DNA of 12,615 nt, taken from IMG/VR virus record IMGVR_UViG_2541047681_000005. One strand, written 5' to 3'. The position numbers and the translations under genes are program-made. Every line of letters begins with the position of its first letter. The first letter of the stretch is position 1. This DNA is from a virus (Duplodnaviria; Heunggongvirae; Uroviricota; Caudoviricetes). The notes beneath the pieces are model-generated. The model was not told the origin of the DNA. It saw nothing but the letters and a program-made list of their open reading frames with translations, and did no database searches. Of this stretch, positions 1,837-12,615 are shown in pieces.

Positions 1837-2196
1837 ATGAATACTGGATATTCTCCCGAACAAGGGCGGGGCTTCGTTCGTCCTGAAAAACAGAATCTGC
1901 AAAATTTTGCCGAAATTATTCCGGTTATTTCCGGCCTTACTGGCGGGAGTGAAACCAATATTGTTAACGCCAGAGCGTTGCAGATGTTTGATGATAAAAA
2001 GGGAGTAAATTTAACTTACACCCCTGACGGCAATCAGAATATGAGCATTATCTCTGAGTCAGGTTTCTACAAACTAATAAAAACAAAAAGCGCCCCGTTG
2101 CCGGAGCGCCTTTGTGAACAATTAACCTACTGCGCAAAAAATGAATCTGAGCAGTGGGATTATATCAACCATGTGGAGAAGCGCCACAATTGCCGA
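1837..2196 (+). pseudogene. Possible decayed Bro-N/antirepressor-like remnant (N-terminal part of a 428-aa composite ORF)
   Basis: The first ~115 aa (DGNQNMSIISESGFYKLIKTKSAPLPERL) weakly resemble the Bro-N/KilA-N motif (ESGLYSLI...). The remainder of ORF 1837..3123 is Cys/Arg/Ser-rich and low in complexity, crosses a divergent promoter region and overlaps a better-supported minus-strand gene, so the long ORF is not one real protein. Confidence 0.25.
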
Positions 2197-2543
2197 ATAA
2201 CGGGCAAAACAAAGGCCACCCGCTACGGTGGCCCCTCGACACAAGCTACACGTTATCCCCAACGCATGAGCATTGCCAACAATGCCACATTTGCGGCTGG
2301 TGGGCAATGCAATCAGTCTGGTTCAGTTCGTTGCCATACCTGCAATGAGCGCTTTTCCCTGTACTCTTTAAGGAATTGCTCAAGGGCAAAAGCACATGGC
2401 GCGAATCTTTCTGATTCATGCTCTATCTTTCTGCGCCGTCTTTTCCGTGCCGGTGATAATGTTTTGGTCAATTCTTTATCGGTCATTGTGTTGTCCTGCA
2501 TAGCAATGCGCCGTAGTTACTCACACCACGGCGCTGGTGATGG

Positions 2544-2723
2544 TTACTCCTGCTCTTTGGCCTTGCGGCGCTGGCGGCGTTTGATTTCGCCGCGCATGGC
2601 TGCGTTTATAAACTGTCCCGTGCTTTCGCCTTCTTCTTTCACGTTCTCCATGCCTTCAATAATTTCATGGGCAATACGTGCAGTTACAGATTGTGATTTT
2701 GCATTCTTTGGACCCGTTGCCAT
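2544..2723 (-). CDS. Hypothetical small basic protein (59 aa), divergently transcribed from the left operon
   Basis: Internal ATG at 2721..2723 (complement) preceded by RBS GAGGGG with 6-nt spacing; product MATGPKNAKSQ...EIKRRQRRKAKEQE. Candidate -35/-10 (TTCAAA/TATATT) on the minus strand, overlapped by operator-like repeats. Family not recognised. Confidence 0.45.
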   Translation of the reverse strand: MATGPKNAKSQSVTARIAHEIIEGMENVKEEGESTGQFINAAMRGEIKRRQRRKAKEQE

Positions 2724-2744
2724 GTTTAACCCCTCATGTTTTTG

Positions 2745-2826
2745 GTGTAAGACAATATACACGAAAAAAAAATATTTTGAAGGGTTGACGTGTAAGACAC
2801 CATTGTTTTACATTGTGTCTTACACC
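2745..2826. promoter_or_regulatory. Divergent promoter region with three copies of an 11-bp operator-like motif GTGTAAGACAC
   Basis: Motif at 2745..2755 and 2790..2800 (direct) and 2815..2825 (inverted). Candidate + strand promoter -35 TTGACG (2785..2790) and -10 TTACAT (2808..2813), 17-bp spacer; one operator copy sits in the spacer and the inverted copy at the predicted +1. Candidate minus-strand promoter overlaps the first copy. Confidence 0.55.
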
Positions 2827-2922
2827 TTATTGATGAAAGGCACAGAAACGACGAAACCCCGCACTGTAGGAGCAGTAACGGGGCTTCTAACCACCAACGA
2901 TAGCAACAGTATCGAGGTAGCT

Positions 2923-3123
2923 ATGAGAAATCATACCACACACCCGAAAGGGCGGGACTCGCACAACCTGAATAAATACATCTGGCGTTTTATCGCCCTG
3001 AGCACGGCACAACCGCGCGTGATTACCATTGAGGCCACCAGCGAACAGGAAGCACGCCAGCAATCTCCGGCTGGCTGCGTGATGGTATTTGCTGCCCGTA
3101 TTCGTCAGGGGGTAGGCTTATGA
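2923..3123 (+). CDS. Small protein (66 aa), first gene of the left operon; possibly Icd-like, otherwise hypothetical
   Basis: ATG at 2923 with RBS GAGGT upstream; product MRNHTTHPKGRDSHNLNKYIWRFIALSTAQPRVITIEATSEQEARQQ.... Its stop overlaps the next ATG (ATGA). The Icd-like assignment is a recollection of P4-like prophage annotations and is unverified. Confidence 0.45.
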   Translation: MRNHTTHPKGRDSHNLNKYIWRFIALSTAQPRVITIEATSEQEARQQSPAGCVMVFAARIRQGVGL

Positions 3124-3795: not shown

Positions 3796-4095
3796 ATGAA
3801 ACTTAAATATTCTGGCTTAACTGCCAGTGGCAAAACTCGCACTAAATTCATGCGCGGTGATATTTACCGCGACCAGTACGGCGGCACGGTAATGATTAAG
3901 GGCGTGGAGGAACGGCGCGTAACCTACCGTCGTGAAGGCTACGAATATGATTGCGTGATGCCTGTTTATCAGTTCGATCGTGATTTTTCTCTGGTGCAGG
4001 CCGTACCGCGTAACGTGCCCACCAGCAGGGAGAAAGCACGCGCCAATATTCAGGAAATAAAAAAGATGCTTAACGTATTCAGGGGTAAGAAATGA
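3796..4095 (+). CDS. Hypothetical protein (99 aa)
   Basis: ATG at 3796 with RBS GGAGA 9 nt upstream; stop overlaps the primase start (ATGA). No family recognised. Confidence 0.55.
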   Translation: MKLKYSGLTASGKTRTKFMRGDIYRDQYGGTVMIKGVEERRVTYRREGYEYDCVMPVYQFDRDFSLVQAVPRNVPTSREKARANIQEIKKMLNVFRGKK

Positions 4096-5846
4096 AACTG
4101 GCACCGAACGTAAAAAAACAACCACGCGGAATAAAACACAAAGACACAGAGGTAATTATTTTCGCGGGTAGTGATGCGTGGTCACATGCAAAACAGTGGC
4201 AGGAGCAGGACGGCCCCGCATCCGGCGATAATGTGCCGCCTGTGTGGCTTGGGCCAAATCAGCTTGCCGAACTTGATGCGCTGAAAATTGTTCCGGATGG
4301 GAAAAAGCGCGTAAGGCTGTACCAGGCCGGAGAACTGGATTTAGTGGAGACCAAAAAGATTGGTCAGAAGCTGGCGGCGGCAGATATTCAGGACGCAAAT
4401 TTTTACCCTGATGGTATGCACGGTCAGAAGGTGGAGAACTGGCGCGAATATCTGGCCCGTGAGCGCCAGAATCTTTCTGATGGTCTGGTCATTGAGCTTC
4501 CGGTAAAGCAAAAGGCGCAACTTTCGCAGATGGCGGACAGTGAGCGCGCGCAGCTGCTTGCCGATCGCTTTGATGGCGTTTGCGTACATCCTGAAAGTGA
4601 AATCGTTCACGTATGGCGCGGCGGGGTATGGTGTCCGGTCAGCACAATGGAACTTAGCCGCGAAATGGTGGCGATCTATTCAGAGCACAGGGCCACTTTC
4701 AGCAAGCGCGTAATCAATAACGCCGTGGAAGCGTTAAAAGTTATTGCCGAACCAATGGGCGAGCCGTCCGGCGATTTGCTGCCGTTCGCCAATGGTGCGC
4801 TTGACCTGAAAACGGGGGAATTTTCCCCGCACACGCCGGAGAACTGGATCACCACGCACAACGGCATTGAGTACACGCCACCAGCACCAGGGGAGAACAT
4901 CCGCGATAACGCGCCAAACTTTCATAAATGGCTTAAGCACGCAGCCGGAAAAGACCCGCGCAAGATGATGCGTATATGTGCCGCGCTGTACATGATTATG
5001 GCGAACCGGTACGACTGGCAGATGTTTATTGAGGCCACCGGAGACGGCGGGAGCGGTAAAAGTACATTCACGCACATAGCCAGCCTTCTGGCAGGGAAAC
5101 AGAACACGGTAAGCGCTGAAATGACATCGCTTGATGATGCTGGTGGACGTGCGCAGGTTGTCGGGAGTCGTCTTATCGTCCTGGCTGACCAGCCGAAATA
5201 TACAGGCGAAGGAACGGGCATCAAGAAAATCACGGGCGGTGACCCCGTGGAAATTAACCCGAAATACGAAAAGCGTTTCACGGCTGTAATCAGGGCGGTG
5301 GTGCTGGCGACCAACAATAACCCGATGATATTCACCGAACGGGCCGGAGGTGTGGCACGTCGTCGCGTGATTTTCCGTTTCGACAATATCGTCAGTGAGG
5401 CCGAAAAAGACAGGGAGCTACCGGAAAAGATCGCGGCTGAAATCCCTGTCATTATCCGCCGATTGCTGGCGAACTTTACCGACCCTGAGAAGGCACGGGC
5501 TTTACTACTGGAACAGCGTGACGGTGATGAAGCACTGGCAATAAAGCAACAGACGGATCCGGTTATTGAGTTTTGCCAGTTCCTGAATTTTCTGGAGGAA
5601 GCGCGCGGCCTGATGATGGGGGGCGGTGGCGATTCAGTGAAGTACACGACCAGGAACAGCCTTTACCGCGTCTATCTGGCGTTTATGGCATACGCAGGCA
5701 GGAGCAAACCGCTAAACGTAAATGACTTTGGAAAGGCTATGAAGCCTGCCGCAAAAGTTTACGGACATGAATATATTACGCGGAAAGTTAAGGGGGTAAC
5801 GCAGACTAACGCAATAACAACAGACGAGTGCGACGCGTTTTTATAA
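4092..5846 (+). CDS. Replication primase/helicase, P4-alpha / D5-like family with P-loop NTPase domain
   Basis: 584-aa ORF with RBS AGGGG upstream; Walker A motif GDGGSGKST, followed by a hydrophobic strand (LIVLADQP) consistent with Walker B. Position after int-alpA and immediately before an iteron cluster matches satellite pri-rep genes. Confidence 0.9.
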   Translation: MKLAPNVKKQPRGIKHKDTEVIIFAGSDAWSHAKQWQEQDGPASGDNVPPVWLGPNQLAELDALKIVPDGKKRVRLYQAGELDLVETKKIGQKLAAADIQDANFYPDGMHGQKVENWREYLARERQNLSDGLVIELPVKQKAQLSQMADSERAQLLADRFDGVCVHPESEIVHVWRGGVWCPVSTMELSREMVAIYSEHRATFSKRVINNAVEALKVIAEPMGEPSGDLLPFANGALDLKTGEFSPHTPENWITTHNGIEYTPPAPGENIRDNAPNFHKWLKHAAGKDPRKMMRICAALYMIMANRYDWQMFIEATGDGGSGKSTFTHIASLLAGKQNTVSAEMTSLDDAGGRAQVVGSRLIVLADQPKYTGEGTGIKKITGGDPVEINPKYEKRFTAVIRAVVLATNNNPMIFTERAGGVARRRVIFRFDNIVSEAEKDRELPEKIAAEIPVIIRRLLANFTDPEKARALLLEQRDGDEALAIKQQTDPVIEFCQFLNFLEEARGLMMGGGGDSVKYTTRNSLYRVYLAFMAYAGRSKPLNVNDFGKAMKPAAKVYGHEYITRKVKGVTQTNAITTDECDAFL

Positions 5847-6134: not shown

Positions 6135-6413
6135 ATGCACACTTCAGGGAAATTTAATAAATCACTCAAAAAACGCAGAGACAGAACAGAACCGAAATAT
6201 CGCGCGTTAGACATGACAGAGCACGCTTTAAAGGTGGCAATCAGAACGATAGACCGCCACGCGGGGGAAGGATACGCGAAAGCACATCCCGAACTGATAA
6301 GCGCATTCATGACCACGACGGCGGCAAATTTTGCCACGCTGACAGAGCGGGAGATTGCCGAAGCGGAACAGGTAACAACCATCAACGTTAAAACCGGAGA
6401 GGTGGAATCATGA
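6135..6413 (+). CDS. Hypothetical protein (92 aa)
   Basis: ATG at 6135 with strong RBS GAGGGGG; stop overlaps the next start (ATGA). No family recognised. Confidence 0.55.
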   Translation: MHTSGKFNKSLKKRRDRTEPKYRALDMTEHALKVAIRTIDRHAGEGYAKAHPELISAFMTTTAANFATLTEREIAEAEQVTTINVKTGEVES

Positions 6414-6832
6414 CAGCACAGATAGCAGCTTACGGGCGGCTGGTGGACGACCCGCAGGTAAAACAGACCAGCAAGGGCACACCGATGACGCTGGCGCGTA
6501 TGGCGGTCCCCCTTCCGTGCAGCCAGGCAGATGACGGAACGGCGACGATGTGGTTATCCGTCCTGGCATTTGGCAGACAGGCCGAAGCACTGGAAAGGCA
6601 CCGCAAGGGTGAACTCCTGAGCGTGGCGGGTAACATGCAGATCAGCCAGTGGACTGGGCAGAACGGAGAAACGCGGCAGGGCTGGCAGGTTATCGCAGAC
6701 AGTGTAATCAGTGCGCGAACGGCGCGACTGGGCGGCAAAAAAGGTCAACAGGGCCAGGCTACTGACGCGCTGAACAGGGCAAAACAACAGGCGGGGAATG
6801 ATGATCCGTACGGGGATAACATACCGTTTTAA
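6410..6832 (+). CDS. SSB-like single-stranded DNA-binding protein (OB fold with SSB-type C-terminal tail)
   Basis: 140-aa ORF with RBS GGAGAGGTGG. N-terminal region aligns by eye with the E. coli SSB OB fold (GRLVDDPQV vs GNLGQDPEV; WLSVLAFGRQAEALERHRKGELLSV vs [25 protein letters not shown]). Gly/Gln-rich linker and C-terminal DDPYGDNIPF resemble the SSB DDDIPF tail. Confidence 0.65.
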   Translation: MTAQIAAYGRLVDDPQVKQTSKGTPMTLARMAVPLPCSQADDGTATMWLSVLAFGRQAEALERHRKGELLSVAGNMQISQWTGQNGETRQGWQVIADSVISARTARLGGKKGQQGQATDALNRAKQQAGNDDPYGDNIPF

Positions 6833-6848
6833 GCGACGAGAGACAGAA

Positions 6849-6870
6849 GCCGGAGCAATCCGGCTTTTTT
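6849..6870 (+). terminator. Rho-independent terminator after the SSB-like gene
   Basis: Hairpin GCCGGA-GCAA-TCCGGC followed by six T (6865..6870). Confidence 0.7.
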
Positions 6871-7247: not shown

Positions 7248-7454
7248 ATGGCTGAAGAGAAAAAAGGCGGTGTTTCGGTGTACATAAGCCCCGAAATCGT
7301 GGAGGTGCTCAAGCAGCGCCACAAAAAAAACTATGAGGCTGGCGTGGCGGCTGGACTGGATCCGCTGATGACGCCGGAGCCGTCGATAGGTTCACTTGTA
7401 CGCTCTTATTTACTTGCGGCGCTTGGGATGCATAAAAATTATGGGGGTGAATAA
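7248..7454 (+). CDS. Hypothetical protein (68 aa), translationally coupled to the major capsid gene
   Basis: ATG at 7248 with RBS AGAGGA; its stop TAA overlaps the capsid ATG (TAATG). No family recognised. Confidence 0.55.
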   Translation: MAEEKKGGVSVYISPEIVEVLKQRHKKNYEAGVAAGLDPLMTPEPSIGSLVRSYLLAALGMHKNYGGE

Positions 7455-8509
7455 TGGCAGGCAAAGCAACGGCACTTAACACTAACCAGCTTTTCATGTA
7501 CCTGAATCGCGGGGATATTGCGGATTTTAAATTCAGCCCTCTGTTTACTACGCTGTTTTTCCCGAACGTGGCGACATTCAGCACGCAAAACATCATGCTG
7601 GATACCCTGGACATTGAAGAAGTCACCATGTCGGCGTTTTGTTCGCCTATGGTGGGTAGCCAGGTTCAGCGCGATAAAGGGTACGAAACCAGCACGATTA
7701 AACCTGGCTACATGAAGCCAAAGCACGAAATCGATCCAACGAAAACCATCATGCGCATGGCTGGAGAAGATCCGGCACAGCTTAACGACCCTACCTATCG
7801 CCGTATGCGCCTGATTACTGGCAATATGCGCCGCCAGATAAACGCCATAAAAGCGCGCGTGGAATGGCTGGCGGTAAATGCGGTAACGACCGGAAAAAAC
7901 ATCATTGAGGGCGAAGGCATAGAGCGCTATGAAATCGACTGGAAGATACCGGAAAAAAACATCATAGAGCAGGCCGACGGGAAAAAATGGTCAGAGCAGG
8001 ACAAAGAAACCCACGATCCAATCTATGATATCGAACTATACGCCGATCAGGCTGGTTGCCCCGCAAACGTCATGATTATGGGCGCTGAGGTATGGCGAAC
8101 GTTACGCAGCTTTAAAAAATTCCGTGAGCTGTACGATCTTTCCCGTGGTTCAGAATCCGCCGCCGAACTGGCCTGTAAAAACCTGGGCGAAGTGGTGAGC
8201 TTTAAAGGCTATCTTGGTGATCTGGCCCTTATCGTCTATTCCGGCAAATACACTGACAGCGATGGTACCGAAAAATATTTCCTTGAGCCTGATTTGCTGG
8301 TCCTGGGCAACACCAACAATAAAGGGCTGGTGGCCTATGGTGCGATAATGGATCAGGAAGCGGTAAGAACGGGCGCAACACAAAACATGTTTTACCCGAA
8401 AAACTGGATTGAGGACGGCGATCCGGCGATTGAGTACGTGCAGACACACAGTGCACCGCAGCCGGTACCGGCAGATATTCGCAAATTTGTTACCGTCAAA
8501 ATTGGTTAA
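7454..8509 (+). CDS. Major capsid protein, lambda gpE family
   Basis: 351-aa product aligns by eye along its length with lambda gpE (341 aa): [163 protein letters not shown] upstream. Confidence 0.9.
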   Translation: [351 protein letters not shown]

Positions 8510-8521
8510 CGGGGGGATTCT

Positions 8522-8857
8522 ATGGACACTCCATACATTGAGTTATTTGCAGGCAGTCAGCAGGTCGCCACGACGCTGGTACATTTTGCCGCTGATGCTG
8601 GCGTTATTCAGGAATTTACCCCGCTGATGCTGGCAGACAATGGCGAGTTTAAGCCGTGGGATGGTCAGGAATCTGGCAAGGCTGTTTATCTGACCTCGTA
8701 CCCTGTGGACACGTCAAAGCAGAAATCAGCACAGTGTTACAAGACGGGGATTTTCAATATTGCCGCCGTTAACTGGCCTGAGAGCGTCGACACCGATGCG
8801 AAAAAATGCGCCGCCTTTGCGGGTTCTGGCGTATCCGTTCAGCCGCTGGCCCGATAA
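8522..8857 (+). CDS. Head decoration protein, lambda gpD family
   Basis: 111-aa product (lambda gpD is 110 aa) with TPLMLADNGEFKPWDG vs TPLMLDTSSRKLVAWDG and YKTGIFNIAAVNWPESVDTDAKKCAAFAGSGVSVQ vs [44 protein letters not shown] upstream. Order is capsid then decoration, the reverse of lambda (D then E). Confidence 0.85.
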   Translation: MDTPYIELFAGSQQVATTLVHFAADAGVIQEFTPLMLADNGEFKPWDGQESGKAVYLTSYPVDTSKQKSAQCYKTGIFNIAAVNWPESVDTDAKKCAAFAGSGVSVQPLAR

Positions 8858-8869
8858 GCAGGGGGAACG

Positions 8870-9283
8870 ATGGCAACGAATGAAAGCGTCATGACGCTAC
8901 CGCTGGCGAGTAAATTTAAAGCCGAAGCGCGGGCAATGGCTGACAGAGGTTTATCAACCTACGAGGCCGTATATCAACTCAACAAACTGGAAGAGCAGGA
9001 CAAGCCGCGCGCTGATGCGATTATGGCGCTTCATGAACATAACGACTATCAGCCGCTGTTACGTGCAATGGCAAACGTGCCATGTATTAGCGTCGATAAT
9101 GCTCGTGAAATCCTGAACATGACCATAGAGCAGGAGCGCCCAAAGGTTGCGCCGGAGCTTACCGCAGCCTTTGAAAACTTTATGGACATGCACAGCCCGA
9201 AAGCCGTATCACCCGGCATGGCATACGACGGCAGAAACCAGGGCGATGAAGGCGACGTCGATCGCATACTGAAAACCATCTGA
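8870..9283 (+). CDS. Hypothetical protein (137 aa), last gene before cos
   Basis: ATG at 8870 with RBS AGGGGGA; followed by a strong terminator. No clear similarity to lambda FI or other remembered head proteins. Confidence 0.6.
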   Translation: MATNESVMTLPLASKFKAEARAMADRGLSTYEAVYQLNKLEEQDKPRADAIMALHEHNDYQPLLRAMANVPCISVDNAREILNMTIEQERPKVAPELTAAFENFMDMHSPKAVSPGMAYDGRNQGDEGDVDRILKTI

Positions 9284-9289
9284 CATAAG

Positions 9290-9312
9290 GCCGGAGAAAT
9301 CCGGCTTTTTTT
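9290..9312 (+). terminator. Rho-independent terminator after the capsid operon
   Basis: Hairpin GCCGGA-GAAA-TCCGGC followed by seven T (9306..9312); near-identical to the hairpin at 6849..6870. Confidence 0.75.
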
Positions 9313-9445
9313 ACGGGTCCTTTCCGGCATATGGACCCGTTACGGGGCGGCGACCTCGCGGGTTTTCGCTATTTATGACGTTTTTCCGTGAAGGTGACAC
9401 CACCACCACTTGATTAATATTTAACCATGCGGTTAAGGTAACATT
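9313..9445 (+). other. Lambda-type cos site (cosQ-like, cosN, short cosB) upstream of the TerS-like gene
   Basis: TACGGGTCCTTTCCGG...GTTACG|GGGCGGCGACCTCGCGGGTTTTCGCTATTTATGA closely matches the lambda cohesive-end region as remembered. Predicted 12-nt cohesive end GGGCGGCGACCT at 9345..9356. One R-site-like element (CGTTTTTCCGTG, about 9381..9392) and an AT-rich stretch follow. Confidence 0.75.
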
Positions 9446-9886
9446 ATGATTGATAAAGCTTGTTTTGTAAGTCAGCAGGAAATAGCTGAACATTTCAAGG
9501 TTAACAGAACCACTATTCGCGCATGGACCAAACAGGGGATGCCGTATCTTAATGCGGATCGCGGAAAGTCTGGCGGTTATCACATCGGGCATACATTGCT
9601 TTGGTCTTCAGGTAAAAGCCGTCTTGAGGCCATCAGATATCACGTAGAAACCAGTGCGCTGGAAAAAATTATGTTTGCCAGGCTGCTTTCATCTGAGCGT
9701 GACGAGTACTCCAGTGAAGAAACAGAACATCGATTTGATGAAGGTTTGCAGATTTACGGCTATTCACCGGAAGATGTGAGCAAGGCACGAAATAAAATGG
9801 CTGGCTTTCTGGCTGGGTGGCGTCATGCCGTAAGCGTTCGCCGTGCCAGCATGGAACAATCAGTCGTTACAGAACAGCAAAGTTAA
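9446..9886 (+). CDS. Small terminase-like protein, lambda Nu1-type DNA-binding N-terminus with divergent C-terminus (TerS/Rpp-like)
   Basis: 146-aa ORF about 90 bp downstream of cosN, as Nu1 is in lambda. N-terminus QQEIAEHFKVNRTTIRAWTKQGMPYL aligns with Nu1 KKQLADIFGASIRTIQNWQEQGMPVL (winged HTH). Shorter than Nu1 (181 aa) and the C-terminal region does not resemble Nu1's. Confidence 0.7.
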   Translation: MIDKACFVSQQEIAEHFKVNRTTIRAWTKQGMPYLNADRGKSGGYHIGHTLLWSSGKSRLEAIRYHVETSALEKIMFARLLSSERDEYSSEETEHRFDEGLQIYGYSPEDVSKARNKMAGFLAGWRHAVSVRRASMEQSVVTEQQS

Positions 9887-9915
9887 AAATCACTTTCTGT
9901 TACGCCATCAAATAC

Positions 9916-10012
9916 GCAATACAACAACCACGTATTTTTTTAAAACTATTTGATTCAATTAGCATTTTTTTATTTTTAGCATCAAAAAAACACTATCAGG
10001 TTGTTGTATTGC
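9916..10012. repeat. 14-bp perfect inverted repeat flanking a 69-bp AT-rich spacer
   Basis: GCAATACAACAACC (9916..9929) and its reverse complement GGTTGTTGTATTGC (9999..10012); a further direct ACAACAACC copy lies near 10060. Spacer contains T/A runs and repeated TAGCATTTTT. Confidence 0.55.
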
Positions 10013-10090
10013 TCTTTATTTTTACTTAGTTATCAAATGGATATGACAAACAATTAAACAACAACCTCCCTCTAAAAAAGCTCATAAATA

Positions 10091-10145
10091 GCGAAAAACC
10101 GCGAGGTCGCCGCCCCGTAACGGGCCATAATTCCAGGAAGGACCC
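10091..10145 (-). other. Second cos-like sequence in inverted orientation (cosQ/cosN-like, no recognisable cosB)
   Basis: Reverse complement of 10091..10145 reads CGGGTCCTTCCTGGAATTATGGCCCGTTACGGGGCGGCGACCTCGCGGTTTTTCGCTATTTATGA, about 85% identical to cos at 9313..9380 including an intact GGGCGGCGACCT. No R-site-like element or TerS gene follows it on the minus strand. Confidence 0.6.
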
Positions 10146-10179
10146 GACGACACCAGACTATCAGAACGATGGGGGCACA

Positions 10180-10461
10180 ATGACAGAAGCCGAAATACTG
10201 CGATTAATCCGCCGCGTTGCCGGAATCAGCCAGCAGCATGACGAACAGGCCACGCAGCCGGACAGCGTGACCGCTGAAAATTATGTGCGTGTTGTTGCTG
10301 AGGTGATGCGCCGTGATGGTATCCAGCTTAATGATGTTGATATGCGCGACATACGGATCCGCGTTCTGGAAATGCTGGCCTACAATCGCCGCGTTGAACT
10401 GTATCGGGAGAAAGAAAAAATAACGTACCACTGGAAGAAGCCGGAGCGGTTGCGGCGGTAA
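10180..10461 (+). CDS. Hypothetical protein (93 aa)
   Basis: ATG at 10180 with RBS GGGGGC upstream; charged product (MTEAEILRLIRRVAG...). No family recognised. Whether it belongs to the satellite or the junction region is unresolved. Confidence 0.5.
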   Translation: MTEAEILRLIRRVAGISQQHDEQATQPDSVTAENYVRVVAEVMRRDGIQLNDVDMRDIRIRVLEMLAYNRRVELYREKEKITYHWKKPERLRR

Positions 10462-11154
10462 CTGGTTGATATTTTCGAAATTCGCCAGCGGCGAACATCG
10501 GGGAAACCAGCCTAACCCGTTGATATTTTCGGAAACCTCAATTTGAGGAAGTCGGCGCGGTAACTCGCTGAACTTAAAGCAAAGCGCAAAATTGCGCTTG
10601 CTGAATAATCATTATGATTACGCAGATGATTAAGGAATGACCGAAGGCGGAAATTCGCCTGTGGTTAATGGGGGAGTTGCAGATCTGCAACTCGACCATG
10701 AAACTACGGAAACTACCCGTAGTTTGGGTAGTAAGAGTAACACCCAGATTTTGGGGCTTACTCGTGATACCCAAATTTGGGGTATCGGTGGCAACCATAA
10801 CGACTTTCGTTACGGTTGATGCTTTTACCCCATTGGGGGAAAGGTATTACGATAATCATAACACCTACCGAACAGGTAAAGCCCACCAGCCTGATTAACG
10901 TTTAACCGGAAAAAAATTCCGGTAGGTGGGGATCCCCATATAGACATTAACGCCCCTCATGAATTGGTGCGCTTCCCCCTGGAAAGATGATCCGCCTGTA
11001 TATTTCTTGTGTCTATTTGTTCCACGTTGTTTCATACGGTGCACCGAACGGTGTAGTTAATGGTGTAGTCAATTTGCGATTTTTGGCACTTTTTCAGTGT
11101 AGATTATTTAATTAAATCAATGGTTTGTCTTGATATAGTGATAAAAGGACATAT
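10462..11154. other. Palindrome-dense non-coding tract between the last satellite ORF and phoQ (possible attR region or structured RNA)
   Basis: No convincing ORF. Direct repeat TAAC-nGTTGATATTTTCG-AAA at about 10459 and 10513. Hairpin-forming palindromes roughly every 30 bp, e.g. AAGCGCAAAATTGCGCTT, GTTGCAGATCTGCAAC, GATACCCAAATTTGGGGTATC, CCGGAAAAAAATTCCGG, TGGGGATCCCCA, CGGTGCACCG. Tandem GGTGTAGT(T/C)AAT at 11050..11073. Confidence 0.4.
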
Positions 11155-12615
11155 TTATTCATCTTTCGGCGCAGAATGCTGGCGACCAAAAATCACTTCC
11201 ATCCGCGCACCGCCCAGCATGCTCTCTCCGGCGACGATTTTACCCTCATATTGCTCGGTGATTTCGCGGGCTACCGCCAGCCCCACACCTTGCCCAGGGC
11301 GTAAAGTATCAACCCGTTGACCACGGTCGAAAATGACCTCTCGCTTGCTTAATGGAATACCGGGGCCATCATCCTCGACCACAATATAGAGATGCTCGTC
11401 GGTTTGCCTTGCAGAAATTTCGACAAACTCGAGGCAATATTTACAGGCGTTATCCAGCACGTTGCCCATCACTTCGACAAAATCATTCTGCTCACCAACA
11501 AAGCTGATTTCTGGCGAGATATCGAGAGAGATATTGACCCCTTTGCGTTGATACACTTTGTTCAGCGCCGAGGTGAGATTGTCCAACAGTGGCGCGACCG
11601 GATGCAGCTCGCGGCTAAGCAATGTCCCGCCGCGCATACTGGCACGATGCAGGTAGTAGCCAATTTGCTGTGAAATGCGGCTGATTTGCTCCAGCATTAC
11701 CGGCTCAGCATCACTGACGCTCATCTTCTCACTACGCAGAGAACGCAGCGTACTTTGCAGCACCGCCAGTGGCGTTTTCAGACTATGGGTCAGGTCGGTG
11801 AGCGTTGTACGATATTTGTCGTAACGTTCGCGTTCACTTTTTAACAGTCGGTTCAGGTTTCGTACCAGACTGGTCAGTTCTCGCGTTGTGGCTGGATTGA
11901 GCAATTCACGGTTATGTTCTTCCAGTTCGCGGACTTCTTTTGCCAGGGCTTCGATGGGGCGTAAACTCCACCAGGCGGCGACCCACAGCAGCGGGATCAC
12001 TAACAGCAGATTGGCTGAGAGCACATAGATAAACCAGCTCCAGACCATATAGGAACTTTTTAGCTCCACCGGAATGGTATCCACCACCACAATGGTTAAC
12101 TTTGGCATCCGCGATGTTGCCGGGTAGACGTTTACCGCCACCGAGTGGGTCATCTCCGCGTCGTCATCATCTTCCCGCACTTCCTGCAACTGTTGCTGTA
12201 TCGAATGATCTCCACTCAGCAAGAGGCTGGTATCGTTAACATCCGCTTCAATTTCATGAAAACCATTCGATTTCAGCCAGTCAGGCTGGATCATCTTCAT
12301 CAGCCAGGGCACGTCACGTTGCGCCCATAAAAGCTGCCCGTTCTCATCATAAATTAGTGTCATCGTGGGGCTTTGCTTGTCGATATTTTCGGGTAACTCG
12401 ACATGCAACTTATTGTTTTCCCACTTCGCAAGGGTATAGAACAGATTGCTCTCGCCACGTAACAGCCGAAACGTGGTTTTATCGAAACTGACGCTATAAC
12501 CGATCAGCGCAACCATTCCGTAGGCAAGCGAAAGCACCAATACTACTGCTGCCGTTGCTAACAGAAAACGTACCCGCAGCGAGAGCGGGAAAAAAAGATG
12601 CAGTAATTTTTTCAT
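11155..12615 (-). CDS. phoQ: Sensor histidine kinase PhoQ (PhoP/PhoQ two-component system), complete
   Basis: 486-aa minus-strand ORF whose ATG is the last codon of the window. Two transmembrane segments, periplasmic acidic cluster EDDDDAE, H-box [15 protein letters not shown] and G-box DDGPGIP; reads as full-length Escherichia/Shigella-type PhoQ. Confidence 0.97.

Follow-up and report, generated by a model that had tools for sequence, protein, structure and literature searches.

The DNA considered here is a viral record of IMG/VR (IMGVR_UViG_2541047681_000005, Caudoviricetes), and its full length of 12,615 nucleotides is referred to as the window. Positions 9290-11156 are best read, with a probability of roughly 85%, as the packaging end of a phage-inducible chromosomal island (PICI) of the EcCICFT073 type, inserted between roxA and the 3' end of phoQ, in which packaging events that start on the unexcised copy would be abortive where no co-oriented cos lies downstream. 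The module comprises a lambda-type packaging site (cos1), the gene rppA and a second, inverted packaging site (cos2), and is an already published system that was dissected experimentally in 2018-2019 (Fillol-Salom et al. 2018 ISME J, PMC6092414; Fillol-Salom et al. 2019 Mol Cell, PMC6739421). An earlier note on this DNA had proposed that a terminase cutting cos1 before excision could carry the neighbouring phoQ and phoP into particles, in the manner of lateral transduction (LT). The direction that it assigned to cos1 holds. LT-like transfer of phoPQ is not expected as a regular outcome and, without a co-oriented prophage cos at roughly one capsid-load downstream, it is unlikely.

Identity of the element

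Judged by its sequence, the whole element is EcCICFT073, the prototype PICI of Gram-negative bacteria. A megablast search of complete E. coli genomes matched 90% of the window to the CFT073 chromosome (95% identity), where gene order and attachment site (attB) agree with those of the window. The best match was GmF052 (95% coverage, 96.4% identity), where the locus is also roxA/phoQ. The annotation of CFT073 places roxA on one flank and phoQ-phoP-purB on the other, with genes ordered as in the window. Gram-negative PICIs are recognized by an integrase, alpA and a primase-replicase read in one direction, a length of about 11-15 kb and a dedicated attB that prophages do not use. In the window, int, alpA and the primase gene all lie on the + strand, about 11.3 kb separate the att cores, and the roxA/phoQ attB is that of EcCICFT073. 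The island measures 11,452 bp in CFT073 and ~11.33 kb in the window, the latter figure assuming the 181-bp attL-int offset of CFT073. The features of the Rpp-type cos PICIs (EcCICFT073 family) are also present, namely an Rpp protein, a cos1 located 5' of rpp with lambda-like cosQ and cosN and a non-phage cosB, and a cos2 located 3' of rpp. Some accessory genes on the left side differ from those of EcCICFT073, as the 90% coverage indicates. Helper-dependent induction, packaging and high-frequency transfer have been shown experimentally only for the CFT073 element.

The cos1 site and its polarity

Reading of the sequence and a cosN search located a lambda-type cos1 at 9310-9378 on the + strand. 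Its parts and the adjoining region are the following.

9310-9327, + strand, cosQ-containing block of cos1, TTTACGGGTCCTTTCCGG; 18/18 identical to lambda and matching the published 'CFT073 cos.1' (PMC6092414, Fig. S5)
9345-9356, + strand, cosN of cos1, GGGCGGCGACCT, the 12-nt cohesive-end sequence; 12/12 identical to the left end of lambda
9357-9378, + strand, I2-side segment, on the Nu1 side of cosN (lambda bp 13-34); 22/22 identical to lambda
9379-9445, + strand, cosB region of cos1, unlike lambda; borders presumptive, with an uncertain right limit that may reach into rppA

These identities bear out the lambda-type cos that the earlier note had placed here. Chance matches to cosN with one mismatch are expected only ~0.1-0.3 times per 50-kb stretch of E. 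coli DNA, so few that the cos1 match is not due to chance. Past 9378, the similarity to lambda is at background level (31/121), and the lambda R3, R2 and R1 sites are absent from cos1. The agreement with cos1 of CFT073 reaches 78/79 up to cosN+34 and 91/92 beyond, in an interval running ~25 nt into rppA. The region 9379-9445 is presumed to be the binding region of the RppA-TerS heterodimer. The next gene begins 101 nt from the first base of cosN (9446), at a shorter distance than Nu1 in lambda (+191).

cos1 thus resembles the lambda site in its cosQ block, its cosN, the next 22 nt and the order cosQ-cosN-cosB followed by a gene for a winged helix-turn-helix (wHTH) protein, and differs from it in lacking R3/R2/R1 or any lambda-like cosB. 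Lambda itself mobilises the island of CFT073. Since the polarity of cos1 is that of lambda, which packages from cosN toward cosB and Nu1, packaging from cos1 would run rightward, toward attR, phoQ and phoP, as the earlier note had deduced. Both lambda- and phi80-mediated transfer of EcCICFT073 need cos1, whose deletion strongly lowers transfer (PMC6092414). Swaps of cosB showed that the cosB of cos1 makes packaging RppA-dependent (PMC6739421), and I2 is required for efficient termination in lambda (PMC4669245).

One further feature touches the left edge of the site.

9290-9311, + strand, GC-rich hairpin followed by a T-run, resembling a terminator and putatively acting as one; 3' of the open reading frame (ORF) 8870-9283, with the T-run entering the cosQ block

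This hairpin/T-run, GCCGGAG-AATCCGGCTTTTTT, occurs twice in the window with 95% identity (direct repeat D15), at 6849-6870, 3' of the SSB gene, and at 9290-9311.

RppA, a TerS mimic

The gene beside cos1 had been taken in the earlier note for a small terminase subunit (TerS).

9446-9886, + strand, rppA (redirecting phage packaging protein A), 146 aa; assigned by identity to c1503 and by the match to the structure of RppC

Its product is identical at 142/144 positions to c1503 of EcCICFT073, which is RppA (144 aa in CFT073, 146 aa in the window), and it matches the crystal structure of RppC (PDB 6HLK, E=6e-31). With lambda Nu1, BLASTP aligns residues 8-71 only, at 30% identity over 64 residues. 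The PHROG TerS match is confined to residues 7-47, and weak helix-turn-helix Pfam matches fall in residues 6-45, in keeping with an N-terminal wHTH. No Pfam terminase family was found for RppA at E<=0.01, and homology to Nu1 does not extend over the full length. The identification as TerS was therefore rejected in view of the c1503 and RppC matches, the purely N-terminal likeness to Nu1 and the lack of a Pfam terminase family. The similarity is undetectable beyond residue ~71, and a counterpart of the C-terminal part of Nu1 is absent. In lambda, this C-terminal part serves self-assembly and TerL binding.

RppA is a mimic of the TerS DNA-binding domain that remodels the helper TerS, and not a terminase subunit. 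The structure of RppC contains a TerS-like DNA-binding domain, and RppA binds the helper TerS to form a complex that ignores the phage cosB and recognises the cosB of cos1 (PMC6739421).

The inverted cos2

The window holds a second cos that does not appear in the earlier note. A 72-nt inverted repeat (I1) brackets rppA, at 9314-9385 and 10075-10146, with 86% complementarity, and its right arm is the core of this site; on finding it, the model of a single cos was rejected. The cosN of cos2 lies at 10104-10115 on the - strand and points leftward, away from phoQ.

10082-10150, - strand, cos2 core, with an I2-like 22 nt at 10082-10103, cosN at 10104-10115 and the cosQ block at ~10133-10143; located by lambda identity and inverted repeat I1
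9887-10081, - strand, cosB side of cos2, phage-type, with three GGTTGTTGT repeats; occupies the interval between cos2 and the 3' end of rppA

Compared with lambda, cos2 is identical at 12/12 positions of cosN and 21/22 of the flank. Its reverse complement (cosQ, cosN and cosB; window 9887-10150) aligns at 84% identity with an entire cos-to-terS intergenic region, that of a lambdoid prophage in E. coli O111 strain 11128 (L011 2420-2720), and the three GGTTGTTGT repeats are conserved. A search of the phage collection with the cos2 cosB of the window gave no match; the matches came from E. coli prophages. EcCICFT073 carries an inverted cos2 at the same position, and its cosB is unrelated to that of the window (37/114). 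The cos2 cosB of CFT073 (L003 1183-1354) matches that of its resident prophage #2 (L005 20489-20660; 80/93), while that of the window is O111-type. The TerS proteins of these two prophages hardly differ in their last ~90 residues; their divergence lies in the N-terminal DNA-binding region. Identity to Nu1 is 37% for the O111 TerS and 53% for that of phi4, a CFT073 prophage treated below.

In Figure S5 of PMC6092414, 'CFT073 cos.1' is the + strand site 5' of rppA, and 'CFT073 cos.2', to which cos2 of the window corresponds, is the reverse complement of the site 3' of rppA. Deletion of cos2 raises lambda-mediated transfer, and deletion of cos1 and cos2 together abolishes transfer. When lambda or phi80 is the helper, cos2 can be dispensed with and even inhibits slightly. 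Once cloned, cos2 can sustain the transfer of a plasmid, and the two sites are both described as functional (PMC6092414). The comparison of the two islands suggests that cos2 could be a swappable, phage-derived cos cassette setting a second helper specificity. It may allow direct, Rpp-independent packaging by a second class of helpers, in the opposite direction. A cosB belonging to another TerS group would account for a cos2 that is dispensable or inhibitory with lambda and phi80. The likeness between cos2 and prophage cosB regions is not mentioned in the available text of PMC6092414 and PMC6739421.

attR and phoQ

The island ends inside the stop codon of a host gene.

11147-11156, + strand, attR core GGACATATTT, marking the island's right end; defined against the unoccupied K-12 locus and the two junctions in CFT073
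11155-12615, - strand, phoQ, full length, 486 aa, a host core gene; from the ORF list, and annotated as phoQ in all matching genomes

The attR core overlaps the phoQ stop codon (11155-11157) and lies ~1.8 kb from cos1. On integration, the island supplies the final bases of phoQ anew and displaces the sequence that natively follows the gene, which in K-12 is a 75-bp phoQ-roxA intergenic region. The expectation that phoP lies just outside the window is sustained, since phoP directly follows phoQ in every related genome examined.

Proposed packaging mechanism

This analysis or the literature shows which sites are present and how they face, what RppA does, that cos1 is needed and that the packaged DNA is phage-sized. 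How many units are packaged, the abortive outcome of in-situ events and a role for cos2 are inferred in the scheme given here. On induction of EcCICFT073, excision and covalently closed circular (CCC) DNA are seen. A lambdoid helper would induce the island, which would excise and replicate. RppA would form a heterodimer with the helper TerS, so that binding to the phage cosB would be lost and the island cosB beside cos1 would be bound. The helper TerL would nick cosN at 9345-9356, and the DNA would be pumped into a phage-sized capsid, rppA first. On the excised concatemer, this rightward course would pass over the rejoined att site to int and then through the remainder of the island. As the packaged DNA is phage-sized (PMC6092414), the terminase must skip cos sites on the island concatemer. 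It would do so until the head is nearly full, that is, for four ~11.3-kb units or ~45 kb. Four units amount to ~45.3 kb (93% of lambda) and three to ~34 kb (70%). We infer packaging as tetramers, in agreement with the phage-sized DNA that was published. cos2 would serve as a further phage-type site facing the other way, whose cosB belongs to a different TerS specificity group.

Were cos1 cut while the island is still integrated, packaging would reach phoQ after ~1.8 kb. Where no co-oriented cosQ-cosN lies downstream, it would have no end point, leaving filled heads that carry no tail and are not infectious.

Downstream cos sites in related genomes

Of the 44 complete genomes that bear the island, six (CFT073, HM670, CU568-3, GmF052, NCTC86 and MEI4BO-21) were surveyed for the next cosN. 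Three of them hold a co-oriented cos in a prophage at icd.

CFT073, 37,186 bp downstream of cos1, 76.7% of the 48.5 kb of lambda
HM670, 34,774 bp downstream of cos1, 71.7% of lambda
CU568-3, 33,462 bp downstream of cos1, 69.0% of lambda

No co-oriented cos was found within ~49.8 kb downstream of cos1 in GmF052, the genome closest to the window, or in NCTC86 and MEI4BO-21. Of the six, these three also have the packaging modules closest to that of the window.

In CFT073, three exact cosN sequences occur over the 83 kb to the right, namely cos1 (+), cos2 (-) and a + site just upstream of terS of the lambdoid prophage at icd. The sequence of the third matches the published 'phi4 CFT073' cos, and this prophage (#4, phi4) is the natural helper of EcCICFT073. 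The chromosome (NC_004431.1) thus has three co-oriented (+) cosN sites.

1,348,533, + strand, cosN of prophage #2 at potB (L005 20534), 39,025 bp upstream of cos1
1,387,558, + strand, cosN of cos1 (L003 559)
1,424,744, + strand, cosN of prophage #4 at icd (L003 37745), 37,186 bp downstream of cos1

The natural helper of the island sits only ~8 kb beyond phoP in CFT073. The excisionase gene of prophage #4 (L003 11503-13052) is annotated as two partial fragments split by IS3 and is intact in HM670. Two further insertion sequences occur in the early region of this prophage, which spans ~55 kb. Excision of prophage #4 may be blocked, or its length may exceed what can be packaged, although it is the reported helper of EcCICFT073.

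In-situ packaging and alternative readings

Taken as a general rule, the proposal of the earlier note, in which cos1 is cut before excision and host DNA is packaged rightward, would lead to LT-like transfer of phoQ and phoP in any host of the island, even with no cos downstream. The location of cos1 agrees with this proposal: the site lies inside the integrated element, on the + strand, 1.8 kb from attR and facing phoQ. The packaging sites used in LT by pac prophages and SaPIs, the pathogenicity islands of Staphylococcus aureus (S. aureus phages, P22, SaPIbov1), likewise lie in an integrated element, near one end and toward the host flank. The mechanism is where the proposal fails. LT proceeds by headful termination, with sequence-independent cleavage and successive headfuls, whereas the window has a lambda-type cos, a class excluded by the LT literature. 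A cos terminase requires a second cos for its terminal cut, which it cannot make independently of sequence, and protruding DNA blocks tail attachment (PMC6687093). Termination in lambda needs cosQ, cosN and I2 (PMC4669245), and cos2 faces the opposite way. In-situ packaging from cos1 therefore cannot terminate without a co-oriented cosQ-cosN downstream, and three of the six surveyed hosts have no terminating cos within ~50 kb. Lambda does replicate in situ before excision, and despite this it is incapable of generalized transduction or LT (PMC8575938); cos phages are stated not to perform LT, which pac-type PICIs such as SaPIs do (PMC12829572). A chromosomal lac::tetA marker was not transferred from CFT073 lysates. 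Tails cannot join unterminated lambda heads, from which DNA protrudes, unless that DNA is trimmed. Of the proposal, the direction of cos1 thus stands and the general mechanism falls, and transfer of this kind in every host is very improbable. SaPIbov4 and SaPIbov5 are cos-type satellites with helper-type cos sites, two of them putative in SaPIbov4. They differ from the window element in their Gram-positive lineage, HNH-dependent terminases and lack of Rpp, and SaPIbov5 redirects capsid size via Ccm.

A narrower route would operate only in strains with a lambdoid prophage at icd. The terminase directed by RppA would start at an unexcised cos1 and end at the prophage cos, giving a mature, cohesive-ended particle that holds the right end of the island, phoQ-phoP-purB-hflD-mnmA-nudJ-rluE-icd and the early region of the prophage. 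In-situ packaging from cos to cos is experimentally established for passive lambda prophages. In this 'helper packaging' of the Feiss laboratory, the terminase is provided in trans and takes up an unexcised chromosomal segment flanked by a pair of co-oriented cos sites; termination is independent of cosB, and the yield is ~0.7-2.3 particles per cell (PMC4669245). The layout of cos1 and the phi4 cos in CFT073 is the same. In CFT073, both are + sites 37,186 bp apart with only the inverted cos2 between them, and the IS3 that splits the phi4 xis means that the prophage cos may stay in the chromosome; the same layout recurs in HM670 and CU568-3. The engineered lambda segments were of lambda length, whereas the natural intervals enclose host genes and measure 33.5-37.2 kb (69-77% of lambda). 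Feiss and colleagues in 1977, and Feiss and Siegele in 1979, reportedly found that efficient terminal cos cleavage and stable virions need roughly 75-78% of lambda, and the packageable distance for lambda-sized heads is ~37-51 kb. The natural spacings are at or below this lower limit. In addition, most island copies and excision-competent prophages probably excise early, and the layout is strain-specific, being absent from the three genomes whose packaging module is most window-like. The route is possible in principle and probably marginal, strain-specific and borderline at best, and its actual occurrence is improbable. The chromosome of CFT073, with its three co-oriented cos sites, can be regarded as a natural pseudo-concatemer. 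There is a small chance that a terminase redirected by RppA could run on it from cos1 to the phi4 cos, as the cos-type counterpart of LT. Packaging could also depend on the helper for its direction. A helper whose TerS matches the cosB of cos2 would package from cos2 leftward through the island toward int, roxA and pepT, and not always toward phoPQ. This reading draws on the completeness of cos2 as a cosQ-cosN-cosB unit, its 84% identity to a real prophage region, the corresponding match of CFT073 cos2 to prophage #2, the divergent N-terminal DNA-binding regions of the two TerS proteins and the plasmid transfer supported by cloned cos2. Against it, the lambda and phi80 experiments found cos2 dispensable and slightly inhibitory, and leftward in-situ packaging would meet the same termination problem. 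Such a leftward course is conceivable and, on balance, doubtful.

Several points weigh against the reading of a PICI end with abortive in-situ events. No published experiment on a phoPQ-linked marker (phoQ, phoP or purB) was found in the literature. Since pac-type SaPIs perform LT (cited in PMC12829572), some island copies can stay integrated at the time of packaging. The co-oriented prophage cos found 33.5-37.2 kb downstream in 3/6 genomes could allow termination, and the window ends at phoQ, so that the downstream spacings are those of six related genomes and not of its own host. The published result with an int mutant (c1501::tetA) was considered as evidence against in-situ packaging and rejected as uninformative for rightward packaging, because c1501 appears by its position to lie left of cos1 and the fragment would lack two-sided homology in recipients.

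Other features of the window

Upstream of the packaging end, the ORF map and a Pfam scan identified the following genes.

1-1230, + strand, tyrosine integrase (int)
1596-1784, + strand, AlpA (alpA)
4092-5846, + strand, D5/P4-type primase
6410-6832, + strand, SSB
7454-8509, + strand, lambda gpE-like capsid protein (Pfam Phage_cap_E, E=6e-52)
8522-8857, + strand, gpD-like decoration protein (Pfam, E=1e-17)
8870-9283, + strand, 137-aa ORF, weakly similar to head-maturation proteases in their C-terminal part (phrog_53, E=2e-9)

The 137-aa ORF could have a scaffold-like role. The 2018 paper describes the island as lacking capsid morphogenesis genes and using phage-sized capsids; the window carries gpE- and gpD-like genes. 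A 428-aa ORF on the + strand (1837-3123) overlaps several ORFs on the - strand and is probably not a single real gene. At this position, CFT073 has short genes on both strands, and a BRO-N domain protein is annotated in GmF052. This accessory region probably explains part of the sequence that is absent from CFT073.

Between cos2 and attR, two further features were recorded.

10180-10461, + strand, 93-aa ORF, the last gene of the island (phrog_1561, unknown function, E=3e-57; no Pfam match); a hypothetical protein occupies the same position 3' of rppA in CFT073
11050-11073, + strand, tandem GGTGTAGTTAAT / GGTGTAGTCAAT repeats, also present beside both ends of the CFT073 island

The tandem repeats are probably arm-type sites of the integrase in attR. 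The ~690-bp non-coding stretch from the last ORF to attR contains direct repeats GTTGATATTTTCG at 10465 and 10519 (within 10465-10539) and, at 10560-10900, paired CCCAGATTTTGGGG / CCCAAATTTGGGG motifs, which are possibly binding sites for recombination proteins. An Rfam scan of the whole window at gathering thresholds gave no match, and hence no known RNA element in the non-coding stretch 10460-11150.

Significance

As it stands, the finding re-describes a published system and adds little to it. The match of the cos2 cosB to different prophage TerS types across islands bears on how satellites broaden their helper range. A second question is whether a cos-type satellite ever mobilises the host genes beside it, a possibility that the LT field at present rules out. 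The prediction is that transfer would be confined to hosts with a co-oriented cos roughly one capsid-load downstream. CFT073, from which the island family was defined, has such a layout at a borderline 37.2 kb. As phoPQ is a core operon of E. coli, transfer, if it occurs, would give allelic replacement across phoQ-icd and not a new trait. If true, particles running from cos1 to the phi4 cos would be the cos-type counterpart of LT that the field says does not exist.

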